A DNA stretch of 64,000 nucleotides, from NCBI RefSeq assembly GCF_048403405.1, contig NZ_CP183129.1, one strand, 5' to 3'. Positions 1 to 18,426 of the stretch are shown one piece after another (positions within the stretch are counted from its first letter, which is position 1; each line of letters starts with the position of its first letter). The translations under genes and the position numbers were made by a program. This DNA comes from Escherichia coli (GTDB lineage: Bacteria > Pseudomonadota > Gammaproteobacteria > Enterobacterales > Enterobacteriaceae). The notes beneath the pieces are model-generated. The model searched no databases and was not told where the DNA came from. It saw nothing but the letters and a program-made list of their open reading frames with translations.

Positions 1-570
1 CCTGGCAGTACAGGCTTCCCCTCTGACGGGATAGCCTGAAAAAATAACACAGAAAATTATTTGTTATAATTAATATAACTTACTCAAAAAAAAGCGACGA
101 GAAAATCAGCATCAACGAACAATAAGCGCCAATACGTGATAACAAATGGCAGCCATATTTATCTGCAGTATAAGCAATGGACAGGATAACCACTCCAGAA
201 ACCGTCAGCATAAAATCCATTTGAACTTCCCCGGACAAAATCGACTCATCTAAAGATTTACAGCTCTTTTTATTATCAATATGTTAAAAGTAAAATAAAC
301 AGATGTTCAATAACACGAATACAAAAACGTGCTGAAATTCAATGAATCCATTTCTGTGTCATCAATTAATAGTGATAAACATCCGGCTTCTTCCACCATC
401 GCACCGGACAGGCGACTATGAGGGGACAACGCCGCGCTCCGTTAACGCGGTAAACCCCGGTGTGTGTCGTTTTTGATTATCCCCGCACACTCGCGCAGAG
501 GAGTCTCCCTGTCGGGCTGCGGTCTCTGTTAATGCGGGGATACGGCGACAATACCGCGCATCAGCAAAAC

Positions 571-1044
571 CTATTTCAGGCACTGAGTGCGGATATAGTC
601 CTGCGCCCCTTCCAGCTGCTTCTGCATCAGCATCAACCGTTCTCTGAGAGTGAAATAATCCCGTTCAGCGGTGTCTGCCAGTTGGGGGCCGGTTGTATTA
701 TCCACGCGGGCGGTGCCGGTGGCTTCACGCACGGGACCTGGACAGGTGGCGTTGATACGCAGGCGCTTACGACCAGCGGCAACGTCAGCGCGAAGAGTTT
801 CATTTTCAGCTCTCGCATCGGCTAATTCCCTCGAGTATTTTGCATCGAGCGCAGCAACATCGCGCTGGCGCACCTGCATATCAGTAATGGTTGCGTTCGC
901 CAGCTTCAGTTCACTGGCTTTGTTATCGCGCTGCGCTTTGTAGGTAATCGCGTTATCACGGTAATGGTCTGTTGCCATCCACAGCGCTCCACAGGCCACC
1001 AGCAGAATAACGATAAACGCGGAAAGCATTCGGTTTATGTTCAC
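571..1044 (-). CDS. Rz-like i-spanin, last gene of the lysis cassette
   Basis: 157-aa ORF with N-terminal hydrophobic segment and charged/coiled-coil-like periplasmic part; fully contains an out-of-frame lipoprotein ORF (Rz1), the embedded spanin arrangement of lambdoid phages. Confidence 0.8.
633..818 (-). CDS. Rz1-like o-spanin lipoprotein, embedded in Rz in another frame
   Basis: Signal peptide ending in lipobox VSAC followed by proline-rich mature region ([14 protein letters not shown]); lies entirely inside 571..1044. Confidence 0.7.
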
Positions 1045-14135: not shown

Positions 14136-14987
14136 TTAAACACGAGGCATATAGGTCTGATTCCGATATTCAATTGGAGTCAGACCTTTTAATTTCAGGC
14201 TAATTCTTCTGCTGTTGTAGTATTCAATATATTCCGTAACAGCATCCTTCAGTTCGCTTATATTACTGAACTCATCAAGATAAAAACACTCCGACTTTAA
14301 GGTTCCAAAGAAACACTCCACCACAGCATTATCCAGACAATTGCCTTTTCTGGACATGCTTTGTTTAATACCATGTTCTTTAAGGATATTTTGATATCTT
14401 CTCATACGATACTGCCATCCCTGGTCAGAGTGCAGAACAGGATGCTCGTGAGGATTAAGCTTTTTGAATGCCTGATCGAGCATATTCTCAACCATGTTCA
14501 TCACTGGTCTTTCCGAAAGGCTGTAAGAAATAACTTCGTTGTTGAAGAGATCTATTACTGGAGACAAATACAGCTTGCGCCCATTGACTGCAAATTCAGT
14601 AACATCGGTAACCCACTTCTCGTTTGGCCGCGTAGCCTTGAAATCTCTTTGGAGAACATTAGGGGCGGTTTGCCCTACCTCTCCTCTGTAAGAGCGGTAT
14701 CGCTTGACCTTAATCGCTGCTTTAAGTGAGAGGGTTCCCATCAGGCGCTGAACAGCTTTATGGTTAATCTGTTTCCCTTCTCGATGAAGAGACAGCGTTA
14801 CCCTACGGTATCCGTATCGGCCTCTATTCTCGTGATAAATCTCACTAATACGCTTTTTAACGTCCGCATACTTGTCAGGCTTGCTGAGAGCCTTTAGATG
14901 ATAATAAAACGTACTGCGCGGTATCTCCGCAGCCCTGAGAAGCTCATCAAGAGGATAAAACTGCCTTAGCTCGTTGAGTACTTTCAC
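14136..14987 (-). CDS. insK: IS150 transposase OrfB (integrase/DDE domain)
   Basis: 283 aa; matches InsK as recalled; overlaps OrfA in the -1 frame. Confidence 0.9.
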
Positions 14988-15505
14988 TTTTTCGTGGGAT
15001 GAGCTAAGGCTTTCAGCTTTTTTAGATACATAAGCCGCGTTTCAAGAAATCGAACTTGCCTTTCAAGATCCTCAATGCGTCGGTCTTTTGACAGCTCCAA
15101 TGCTGATGCCGCTTTTTCTGGATCAACTGATATTGCAATGTTTCTTTTGGTGCCAATCTTGAGCGCGCGTAAACCAGCTTCTCCGCGCTCTTCATAGACC
15201 TTCAGCCACCTGGCTACAGAACCACTACCAGCAAGCATAAAGTGAGCAGCAGCCTGATTAAGGGACATGTGCTGCTCGATCACAGCTTTCACGACCTTAA
15301 TACGCAACTCTGGATCAGCACTAACGCCTTTAGGTTTGGGAATTAAACCTTTTTCTCCATGTTTTTCATAGAGGGCAACCCATGTCCTGACCTGGGTTCG
15401 GGGGACACCAAAACGTGCCGAGATGATCCTGTAACCATCATCAGTTGTGAAGTAGTGATTCACGACTTCAAGGCGCTTTTCAAAAGGGTATTTTGGCTTT
15501 GACAT
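14984..15505 (-). CDS. insJ: IS150 transposase OrfA (HTH)
   Basis: 173 aa; MSKPKYPFEKRLEVVNHYF... matches InsJ as recalled. Confidence 0.9.
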   Translation of the reverse strand: MSKPKYPFEKRLEVVNHYFTTDDGYRIISARFGVPRTQVRTWVALYEKHGEKGLIPKPKGVSADPELRIKVVKAVIEQHMSLNQAAAHFMLAGSGSVARWLKVYEERGEAGLRALKIGTKRNIAISVDPEKAASALELSKDRRIEDLERQVRFLETRLMYLKKLKALAHPTKK

Positions 15506-16925: not shown

Positions 16926-17591
16926 TCAAATAAAACCAGCTGCCTTCCGGCGTTCGTATTCCTGTTTCAGCCGTTCAATTGGCGTTGGCCCTTGCGGGTG
17001 TTTCGCCCCTTCCAGTTGTCGTCGCACTGGCGGAACACTCATCCCGTTACCAACATGCTTTGCCCATTTCGTCAGTTGCCGTTCCGCAAGTCGTTTTAAC
17101 TCACCCTGCGTCATCTGGCGCTCAATCCCTCTGGTACGCATTTCGAGGCAGATGTGGTACAGCACAGGCTGAGGCCACGGATATTTGTCGCTTCCGTCAT
17201 ATCGCCAGGACTCATCACGCCAGCGGCGGTACTCCTCCATCACAGCATCCACCGTCAGGCCAAATGGATTGGCCCCGCTTTCTGAAATCAGCGCCACAAA
17301 CTCAGCCAGGTCCGGAGGCCATGTTTCACCCGCCCGGCAGCGGTCCATGCACTGGCGGCAGACCTGTCGGATTTGCTGCTCAGTCATCGCGCCAATCTGT
17401 GCAATCCAGAGCTTCGAAGGTGCGGCCCCGTTCTTCTGGGTCCAGCGGTTCGAATAAACCTCCCCCATGAGTTCCCACAGCTTCCAGACCGTTTCCGTCG
17501 CTGATAAATCCGTTTTCACGTTCCCACTGCTCACGTGCTGCCCGAATTTCCTGAACTGCCCGTGATGCGGTGCCACCTGGTGCTGCTGCAT
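16926..17591 (-). CDS. replication protein P-like (helicase loader)
   Basis: Segments ETWPPDLAEFVALI and YPWPQPVLYHICLEM parallel lambda P (RPFLPSPGQFVAWC, YPWKSNAHYWLV) as recalled; 5' 212 bp overlaps the O-like ORF in another frame, so start uncertain. Confidence 0.6.
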   Translation of the reverse strand: MQQHQVAPHHGQFRKFGQHVSSGNVKTDLSATETVWKLWELMGEVYSNRWTQKNGAAPSKLWIAQIGAMTEQQIRQVCRQCMDRCRAGETWPPDLAEFVALISESGANPFGLTVDAVMEEYRRWRDESWRYDGSDKYPWPQPVLYHICLEMRTRGIERQMTQGELKRLAERQLTKWAKHVGNGMSVPPVRRQLEGAKHPQGPTPIERLKQEYERRKAAGFI

Positions 17592-18426
17592 GGTTTACCC
17601 CCTTGCTGACTGGCTTAACCTGCGCCCTGACGTGATTTACGTGACGGGCGAATTTCTGCTCCCACTGAACCTGCGTGAAAACTTTCCCCTCCGCTGCCCA
17701 GTAGTCCCGGAAAGCGGCAAGTTCAGCAGGTGTAAATTCCGGCTCCGGCAAAGCCATCCCCCACAACGCAGCCCGTCGTCGAAAATCCGGCGACGGATGC
17801 CAGTCATCGACCATCGGAAATTTCCCGATGGGTTCGCTCAGTCCATCCAGGGATGCAGGTTCTGCTGCCTGCAACGGCGTACCACTCGACTCACTGGTCG
17901 GAGCACTCTCGCGCACGTGCGCGTTATGTGTGGGGTTTAATTCTTTATCTGTATCTTTATCTGTCGTGACTCGTCGTGACATGTCGTGACATATGCGTGA
18001 CTCGTCGTGACACCCCTCATTCTGTTTTCGTAATTTTTCCCTCTCGCGCTGCGCTCTCTTGCGCTCTGCCGGGGATTTCGCGGTTTGTGAAACGTTGCCA
18101 TTGTCCTCTTTCAGTACCTGGCGTTTTTCCCATCCGGTGATTAAATCTCCATCAAGTACCCGCCCCTGCATTGCCTGTAAAATTGAATCAATTACTTCTT
18201 CCGTCACATCAAGCGCACTTGCTAAATCTTCCGTCGTGACATCAATGTGACCACGTAGTGACACGCCGTGACATGTCGTGACATTTCGTGACGCGCTCAC
18301 CAGAAGGTGGATATACACTGCCATCACTGTTGCAATTGGCTGCCCTGACACCCTGGCAATTGTTCGCCACTTAGGGTCATTTGGCATGTCATGCCATAAT
18401 CTGAGCCAGGCGTTAGCCATACTCAC
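17380..18426 (-). CDS. replication initiator O-like protein containing the origin iterons
   Basis: 348-aa ORF upstream of P-like gene; two clusters of tandem ~10-bp GTCGTGAC repeats lie inside it. Confidence 0.6.
   Translation of the reverse strand: MSMANAWLRLWHDMPNDPKWRTIARVSGQPIATVMAVYIHLLVSASRNVTTCHGVSLRGHIDVTTEDLASALDVTEEVIDSILQAMQGRVLDGDLITGWEKRQVLKEDNGNVSQTAKSPAERKRAQREREKLRKQNEGCHDESRICHDMSRRVTTDKDTDKELNPTHNAHVRESAPTSESSGTPLQAAEPASLDGLSEPIGKFPMVDDWHPSPDFRRRAALWGMALPEPEFTPAELAAFRDYWAAEGKVFTQVQWEQKFARHVNHVRAQVKPVSKGVNHAAAPGGTASRAVQEIRAAREQWERENGFISDGNGLEAVGTHGGGLFEPLDPEERGRTFEALDCTDWRDD
17961..18011. repeat. iteron cluster A (5 tandem ~10-bp NNGTCGTGAC repeats), candidate ori
   Basis: Head-to-tail repeats at one helical-turn spacing, preceded by AT-rich tract 17935..17960. 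Confidence 0.65.
18231..18292. repeat. iteron cluster B (6 tandem ~10-11-bp repeats ending GTGAC)
   Basis: ccgtcgtgac, atcaatgtgac, cacgtagtgac, acgccgtgac, atgtcgtgac, atttcgtgac. Confidence 0.6.

Follow-up and report, generated by a model that had tools for sequence, protein, structure and literature searches.

The replication-module locus

Here we describe the replication module of a lambdoid prophage in a stretch of 64,000 nucleotides (nt) from Escherichia coli (contig NZ_CP183129.1), which is called the window throughout. In the early-right region of this prophage, an O-like gene for a replication initiator and a P-like gene for a helicase loader are both located on the minus strand, and they share 212 nt that are read in two different frames. 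We consider this arrangement very probably a genuine and anciently conserved out-of-frame overlap between the two genes of a replication module of the lambdoid type. Each of the two frames is conserved and open and carries a codon signature of its own, the start signals are conserved, and the same segment is found joined to different partners. The components as such are known, namely lambda-P-type loaders, initiators of the DnaT-like or replisome-organizer type, and overlapping phage genes in general. Both open reading frames (ORFs) are in the ORF list of the window, and the overlap comprises codons 1–70 of P plus 2 nt; the first-pass annotation of this DNA was thus right in placing an O-like and a P-like frame over each other at 17380–17591 and in stating that the O frame stays open through the first 70 codons of P. 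The features of the two genes and of the shared segment, with the Shine-Dalgarno (SD) site of P and lengths in amino acids (aa), are the following:

17380..18420, minus strand: O-like initiator gene, 346 aa from the ATG at 18420 (RefSeq start in an identical sequence)
17380..18426, minus strand: longest O-like open frame, 348 aa from a GTG at 18426
16926..17591, minus strand: P-like helicase-loader gene, 221 aa from its ATG (M1), with a match to PF06992
17380..17591, minus strand: two-frame segment of 212 nt, O codons ~277–346 and stop, P codons 1–70 plus 2 nt
17598..17604, minus strand: P SD site AAGGGGG, 6 nt 5' of the P ATG, inside O (residues K-G)
17589..17591, minus strand: P start codon ATG (M1), built from the O codons CAT-GCA
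17487..17591, minus strand: 5' half of the overlap, O linker and predicted helix (..TASRAVQEIRAAREQWERENG..), opposite P residues 1–35
17380..17486, minus strand: 3' half of the overlap, P motif AW.LWE.MGEIYSNRWT.KNG..PS.LWIAQIG, opposite the O acidic tail ending in ..LDCTDWRDD and the stop
17466..17468, minus strand: ATG of M42, start in calls of 180–181 aa, possible secondary start
17385..17387, minus strand: ATG of M69, RefSeq/GenBank start of a 153-aa 'replication protein P', with an 8-nt overlap with the O stop (ATGACTGA)
17380..17382, minus strand: O stop codon TGA, built from the P codons T70 (ACT) and E71 (GAG)

The two frames are offset such that position 1 of a P codon is position 2 of an O codon (P positions 1, 2 and 3 correspond to O positions 2, 3 and 1). 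In databases, the O-like protein is named 'phage replisome organizer' or DnaT-like single-stranded-DNA-binding-domain protein. It carries the Pfam DnaT DNA-binding domain at aa 203–269 in the 348-aa numbering (64 bits) and matches the C-terminal half of the primosomal protein DnaT (NCBIfam DnaT positions 80–166); this is its only Pfam domain, with no match to PF04492 (Phage_rep_O). The P-like ORF matches Phage_lambda_P (PF06992) with aa 55–188, corresponding to profile positions 27–161 of 162, at 59.3 bits for a cut-off of 26, and homologues of 212–223 aa cover 96–100% of the 221-aa reading.

Distribution of the overlap

A species scan with one genome per species returned 24 loci, of which the 17 intact ones were used. 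Together with the window and the copy in E. coli O157 EDL933 they form a set of 19 Enterobacterales loci, taken from Escherichia, Citrobacter, Klebsiella, Pluralibacter, Phytobacter, Kluyvera, Pectobacterium, Prodigiosinella, Serratia, Rouxiella and Samsonia. Counting P from its first ATG, the two genes overlap in all 19 loci, by 149–242 nt and mostly by 200–215 nt, and the length of the overlap is always 2 modulo 3, so that a single relative frame is used throughout. The O–P junction is found in 1252 of 5426 complete E. coli genomes, and Escherichia albertii carries an identical P. Vibrio phages D62, D68 and 1.214.O have overlaps of 212, 200 and 191 nt, respectively. A profile search with the N-terminal region of P yielded 771 clusters at 50% identity, and of seven distant metagenomic contigs from these clusters, six have overlaps of 212, 245, 251, 110, 134 and 95 nt. 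Isolated phages carry the overlap with both ORFs intact as well, namely Rac-SA53, the Stx2a phage/PPompW records, Klebsiella phage Kp4865-4 and the Vibrio phages. The P0109 loci hold isolated P remnants without an initiator.

On L041, an ORF at 238–1029 (plus strand) shares 110 nt with the P-like gene and contains YLNQQRWTDE, a conserved motif of O-like proteins; the 199-aa gene called there on the minus strand (262–861) is probably spurious.

The first-pass annotation had placed two explanations side by side, a genuine overlapping arrangement and a possibly defective module, in which a frameshift or a lost stop codon in the window prophage had extended O into P. The latter would fit the short overlap of just 4 nt in both lambda and phi80, for which the accompanying statement that lambdoid O and P genes normally overlap little is true, and it would also fit database entries in which O and P are fused (P0119, P0103, P0141 and P0162). 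However, the comparison with homologues, set beforehand as the test of such a defect, revealed the same overlap with intact ORFs and full-length O and P proteins in many genera and in isolated phages. The defect is therefore refuted as an explanation, and its probability is practically nil; the overlap is clearly not a private lesion of the window sequence.

The four O–P fusion entries were also considered as real proteins and rejected as such, their source assemblies, L031 (ENA tig00000098) among them, containing several frameshifts, which are either long-read errors or signs of a decaying Serratia-type prophage. Entries of this type could mislead surveys of domain architecture.

Start of the helicase loader

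The start codon of P is maintained inside the O gene through the choice of O codons. In all 19 loci, the O codon at the P ATG is NAT (His, Asn, Tyr or Asp) and never NAC, and the O codon that follows starts with G in each of them, so that the P ATG is kept while the O residue varies. An SD sequence (GGAGG, GAGGT or AAGGGG) is located 5–9 nt 5' of the ATG in the 19 loci, and where O has Gly-Gly at this site, the pair is coded GGA GGT. Pairing with the anti-SD sequence at M1 amounts to −11.8 kcal/mol in the window and to −6.6 to −11.8 kcal/mol across the enterobacterial loci; it is about −4 to −6 kcal/mol at M42 (−4.2 for the ATG at 17466–17468) and −3.1 kcal/mol at M69, with a background of −2.95 ± 2.3 kcal/mol for positions in P. 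Judged from these alignments, the P start at 17591 (M1) is kept by selection.

The start methionine of loader calls varies by pipeline and genus. Calls of 153 aa (e.g. P0021, P0023 and P0028) begin at M69 and calls of 180–181 aa (P0020, P0025 and P0030) at M42, the latter in Salmonella, Citrobacter and Klebsiella, while other entries have 221–223 aa (P0002, P0004 and P0008). Truncation of the loader in gene calls is systematic, as indicated by the many representatives of the 50%-identity library whose first residue falls exactly on profile position 40 or 67.

If the annotated 153-aa protein were correct, P would start at M69, with ATGACTGA coupling this start to the O stop, and the open frame upstream would be a by-product of O. 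Such a start is given by RefSeq with the Prokaryotic Genome Annotation Pipeline (PGAP) and by GenBank, and ATGA-type junctions are typical of lambda. However, the residue at the position of M69 is Leu, Phe or Cys in 6 of the 19 loci. The most conserved motif of the family, which is the P motif listed above from its first Trp onward (aa 36–68), is located before M69 in its entirety and before M42 in part, and three confidently predicted helices likewise precede M69. Residues W39, W50, K53, N54, G55, P58 and W62 of this region are invariant among 48 sequences. Moreover, codons 36–70 carry a codon-position signature of the P type, the Pfam match already begins at aa 55, and a 153-aa product would be without equivalents of lambda P domain I and of about half of domain II (PMC12661323). 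We consider a start at M69 highly improbable; the RefSeq 153-aa P is probably truncated by 68 residues, and M69 is probably not the true start.

A start at M42 (17466–17468), by which the overlap would be reduced to 89 nt and the first 41 codons left untranslated, is unlikely too. M42 is nearly invariant among P sequences, pipelines choose it for the 180–181-aa 'replication protein P' of Salmonella, Citrobacter and Klebsiella, and P residues 1–35 are unconstrained and predicted to be disordered. However, W36, W39 (invariant) and the beginning of the predicted helix 29–46 fall upstream of M42, its SD pairing is weak (−4 to −6 compared with −7 to −12 kcal/mol at M1) in an unconserved context, and the ATG of M1 is held by synonymous-site choice in O. 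Even with a start at M42, the overlap stays long and conserved.

Constraint in the two frames

From a codon alignment of the 19 loci, the mean pairwise nucleotide difference was obtained for positions 1/2/3 of the P codons. In P codons 1–35 it is 0.46/0.59/0.53, with the peak at the third position of O, which is the signature of O coding. Among closer relatives, this signature becomes very clear in P codons 11–20 (0.14/0.54/0.21). P codons 36–70 (0.34/0.27/0.52) display the signature of P coding, as does the non-overlapping part of P (0.33/0.26/0.62). The constrained reading is that of the initiator in the 5' half of the overlap and that of the loader in the 3' half.

About midway through the overlap, the conserved frame thus changes from that of O to that of P, which is also what a programmed +1 ribosomal frameshift at this point would produce, the conserved O half and the conserved P half being parts of an O–P fusion protein. 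The P frame is +1 to that of O, and the SD-like AAGGGGG is located upstream; in prfB, an SD-like sequence lies upstream of the frameshift site. However, the switch region, P codons 21–30, is the most variable part (0.59/0.66/0.61, with indels), and no conserved shift-prone sequence was observed in it in the 19-locus alignment. Instead, an ATG that is conserved and properly spaced from its SD is the mark of independent initiation. Furthermore, the O frame remains open for ~35 codons past the switch, and in Vibrio phage 1.214.O (L037) the P frame opens exactly at the ATG, neither of which would be needed for frameshifting. We therefore assign only a very small probability to a frameshifted fusion.

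Whether the O frame is kept open was tested most directly by comparison with a control, in which the same alternative frame was followed through six 33-codon blocks of non-overlapping P in the 19 loci. In the control blocks, this frame is closed by a stop in 13–18 of 19 loci. Across P codons 36–68, the O frame is closed in 1 of 19 loci, the exception being L025, where the initiator ends ~12 codons earlier. Under synonymous recoding of P, the O frame would be open with a probability of ~0.21 per locus for the 3' half and of 0.034 for the whole overlap, values which are not simply multipliable over loci, because the 19 loci are phylogenetically related. At third positions at risk of creating a stop before the O stop, T does not occur, compared with 21% at equivalent sites elsewhere in P. 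The comparison of O-frame identity with random synonymous recoding is by itself confounded by shared ancestry, hence the use of control blocks here as well; the excess over the recoding expectation is modest, +0.064 in the 3' half of the overlap versus +0.003 to +0.045 in the controls, and identity at the third position of P codons is higher in the overlap block (0.48 versus 0.34–0.43). The motif of the O tail (EPLDPEERG, D.DW.DD) is largely dictated by the invariant SNRWTQKNG and AQIG of P, and constraint on both frames at the same codons simultaneously is weak. Taken over the whole segment, both frames are open beyond expectation in diverged homologues, and purifying selection is detectable in each of them.

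Predicted structures of loader and initiator

An AlphaFold2 (AF2) model of P, built on 63 aligned sequences, has a mean predicted local distance difference test score (pLDDT) of 78.8. Residues 1–27 are disordered (pLDDT below 50), while the helices at 29–46, 48–54 and 60–67, all encoded in the overlap, are predicted with pLDDT of 82–88 and the remainder is helical, giving an overall arrangement of a disordered segment 1–27, helices in 29–104 and 114–181, and a helix at 204–217. In a Foldseek search, the top matches of this model are the lambda P chains in 9oa1, a complex between DnaB and lambda P, over 194–220 columns and with an E value of 2.5e-5. The template modelling (TM) score with lambda P is only 0.40, since the domains are flexibly linked. 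Lambda P consists of four parts, a disordered N-terminal lasso (I, 1–29), domains II (~30–119) and III (~120–192) and a C-terminal lasso (IV, 193–233) (PMC12661323). The model of P matches this four-part architecture of a lasso, two helical domains and a C-terminal lasso, and the overlap is predicted to encode the equivalents of lambda P domain I and of the first half of domain II. The first-pass annotation had P aligning with lambda P from close to its first Met, a claim that is hence only partly upheld. It does not hold at the level of sequence, where the BLASTP alignment with lambda P spans aa 86–193 only, the Pfam match begins at aa 55, and a family profile built without lambda matches the lambda P chains 8v9t and 8v9s at aa 85–189 (1.7e-6); it does hold for the collinear lengths and for the predicted structure, which aligns with full-length lambda P over 220 columns.

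For the initiator, an AF2 model from 37 sequences gives the following parts (346-aa numbering, except for the genomic line, in which aa positions refer to the 348-aa ORF):

1–96: folded N-terminal domain
135–185: disordered linker, coded by the iteron region
200–268: DnaT-like domain, pLDDT ~90
17620..17820, minus strand: DnaT-like three-helix domain of the O-like protein, PF17948, aa 203–269, pLDDT ~90
270–285: disordered linker, containing the SD and ATG of P
287–302: helix, pLDDT 55–75
306–346: disordered tail, pLDDT below 50

According to both models, the structured part of each protein would face a disordered part of the other across the overlap.

Iterons, mosaic structure and neighbouring genes

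Two clusters of iterons are located inside the O gene:

17963..18011, minus strand: iteron cluster 1, four exact copies of GTCACGAC with ~10-nt spacing
18233..18292, minus strand: iteron cluster 2, GTCACGAC and one-mismatch variants with ~10-nt spacing, inside the part coding for the O N-terminal domain

The 64-kb window has eight exact copies of GTCACGAC, six of which fall at 17963–18282 with ~10-nt spacing, and in translation the clusters give odd runs of residues, CHDESRICHDMSRRVTT and VTTCHGVSLRGH. The clusters probably constitute the replication origin. Phage matches to the region fall in two sets, covering only either YdaT and the N-terminal half of the initiator, or the C-terminal half of the initiator and P, with the mosaic junction of the O gene at iteron cluster 1 (~17950). 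The N-terminal 151 aa of the initiator are 87% identical to the initiator of phage vB_EcoS-689R5, which has an unrelated C-terminal half and is not followed by a P gene. Compared with this phage protein, the window initiator has a 7-aa insertion inside iteron cluster 2 (aa 49–55, TCHGVSL, ~18256–18276), which looks like a gain or loss of iteron copies altering the protein.

The classical lambdoid rule pairs the N-terminal half of O with the iterons and its C-terminal half with P. The mosaic junction in the window agrees with this rule; what is added here is that one stretch of DNA serves both as the P-proximal end of O and as the O-proximal end of P. The segment of O tail and P N-terminus is passed on as a single module and is joined to different initiator bodies, with a DnaT-like domain only (window), with DUF1376 and DnaT, with Phage_rep_O (L021, which has the same O tail as the window and carries PF04492), with HTH_36 (Vibrio phages), or without a Pfam match. 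The loader C-termini joined to it differ as well, matching PF06992 in enterobacteria and no Pfam family in the Vibrio phages, whose proteins match only residues 1–132 of P. In the latter, the P-like open frames comprise 2001–2660 in D62 (L034), 1893–2534 in D68 (L035) and 1890–2522 in 1.214.O. They are annotated as short hypothetical proteins with starts at 2334, 2013 and 2070, respectively; the open frames begin 120–333 nt upstream of the annotated starts, inside the O-like gene.

On the minus strand, the genes follow one another in the order YdaS-like Cro, YdaT, initiator, loader, a DUF1627 gene and a further ORF, which is DUF977 in the RefSeq annotation of an identical E. coli sequence. A 173-aa ORF follows directly downstream of the genes of the replication region, at 14984–15505 (minus strand); we take it to resemble the OrfA transposase of the IS3 family, presumably similar to InsJ of IS150. 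In an E. coli prophage that is otherwise identical, this place is taken by queH and hokD, suggesting an insertion of an insertion sequence (IS) or a rearrangement.

Interpretation of the overlap

The genuine overlapping arrangement is supported by the conserved ATG and SD of P within O, by the frame-specific codon-position signatures, by an O frame that is open against expectation and by the confident P helices within the overlap. We propose a model in which the upstream gene would encode an origin-binding initiator built of an N-terminal domain, a linker coded by the iterons, the DnaT-like domain and a short helix, with a disordered acidic tail at its end, and the downstream gene would encode a 221-aa helicase loader of the lambda P type. 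The loader would be translated from its own SD and ATG, 70 codons before the initiator stop, so that the 212 nt at 17380–17591 would be read in two frames. In the 5' half of the overlap, the initiator would be the constrained partner, opposite a variable and disordered leader of the loader that is positioned like lambda P domain I. In the 3' half, the loader helices of domain II would be constrained, while the initiator tail would mostly follow from P, with its frame kept open. Ribosomes translating the initiator would cross the loader start and may in this way influence loader initiation.

A number of points weigh against this model. Translation of both frames is an inference from sequence, and the relatedness of the 19 loci, mentioned above with the per-locus probabilities, limits what their number can contribute. 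One of the seven distant metagenomic relatives, L042, has no overlap; the P starts of the Vibrio phages have lower SD scores; and RefSeq and GenBank phage records annotate the loader as a protein of 153 aa with an 8-nt overlap. Synonymous differences in P codons 36–70 are 0.549 versus 0.574 over all loci, which is not significant, and 0.40 versus 0.50 among closer relatives, with p = 0.04 only. Sequence constraint on the last ~35 residues of O is weak, and the case for the O tail therefore rests on the openness of its frame together with the controls. Conversely, the P frame in codons 1–35 would be open by chance in ~69% of cases given the O sequence, and the 19-locus alignment displays no amino-acid constraint of P's own in residues 1–35. 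Consequently, the case for translation of the P leader rests on the conserved start signals, and for M1 the evidence consists of its conserved ATG and SD together with the helix starting at aa 29.

In lambda, the C-terminal part of O interacts with the N-terminal part of P. By analogy, the segment may carry the surfaces for mutual recognition of O and P, although we regard this as no better than a tentative proposal. Equally speculative is the idea, likewise by analogy, that the overlap is an indivisible specificity cassette, with ~200 nt encoding both the initiator tail and the N-terminal domain of the loader in two frames. If so, both recognition surfaces would be the same DNA, and recombination could consequently not separate them. 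The cassette could then be joined to unrelated initiator bodies (DnaT-like, DUF1376, Phage_rep_O or HTH_36), and likewise to unrelated loader C-termini (lambda-P-like in enterobacteria, VdhL-like in Vibrio), with the match of initiator and loader left intact. The overlap would thereby suggest how initiator–loader specificity could stay matched in highly mosaic phage genomes.

It should be noted that the loader is apparently 68 residues too short in the reference annotation of about a quarter of complete E. coli genomes. Misannotation of its start codon is widespread, with three places of start (153, 180 and 221 aa), which bears on structural and functional work on these loaders. The ~70 shared codons, deeply conserved and with a tidy partition of order and disorder, provide a test case for the maintenance of long overlaps. 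Furthermore, the overlap marks a module common to the enterobacterial lambda-P-type loaders and the P-like loaders of Vibrio phages and bears on the relationship of these loader families.

Comparison with known systems

We found no earlier description of the overlap in the literature searched, the coverage of which is incomplete; the papers on DopCE, on replication regions of Stx phages and on VdhL are silent about it. As in lambda and in phi80 (genes 15–14), an initiator gene with internal origin iterons is followed by the gene of a helicase loader in the window. The likeness to lambda extends to P, which belongs to PF06992 and has a predicted lambda-P-like fold, and to O, which is mosaic at the iterons, the N-terminal domain travelling with the iterons and the C-terminal part with P. 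In contrast, the O–P junction of lambda and phi80 is of the 4-nt ATGA type, compared with a 212-nt two-frame overlap in the window, and the window initiator has a DnaT-like domain instead of the Phage_rep_O domain of lambda O. Neither the C-terminus of lambda O nor that of phi80 gp15 was found to resemble the O tail. The phi80 gp14 protein shares only the C-terminal half of P (aa 93–221, 45% identity), and its gene has no long overlap.

A related pair of proteins is DopC/DopE, a domesticated lambda-like pair of Cellvibrionales and Oceanospirillales (Brezellec et al. 2017, PMC5509034), in which a helix-turn-helix (HTH) initiator-like protein with a DnaT C-terminal motif is found beside a lambda P-domain protein. 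Unlike the window genes, DopCE is chromosomal, no iterons were found there, and an overlap is not mentioned (PMC5509034). VdhL, a virus-derived helicase loader with VdhL1 and VdhL2 in V. harveyi, is found in Vibrio phages and Vibrionaceae, and its homologues are ~30% identical to some PF06992 proteins (PMC11087808). The P-like genes of the Vibrio phages adjoin lambda-O-like genes and have no PF06992 match, which fits the published description of VdhL homologues; compared in this way, the Vibrio phage P-like proteins may belong to the VdhL loader family. An overlap with the O-like gene is not mentioned for VdhL (PMC11087808), whereas the three phage types analysed here overlap by 191–212 nt.

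Overprinting in viral genes resembles the arrangement in that two frames are read over ~70 codons with order opposite disorder. In overprinted viral genes, a structured part of one protein opposite a disordered part of the other is a described pattern. The window overlap differs from these cases in that it comprises the ends of two essential, interacting replication proteins rather than a nested small accessory gene, and in that it is conserved across two bacterial orders.

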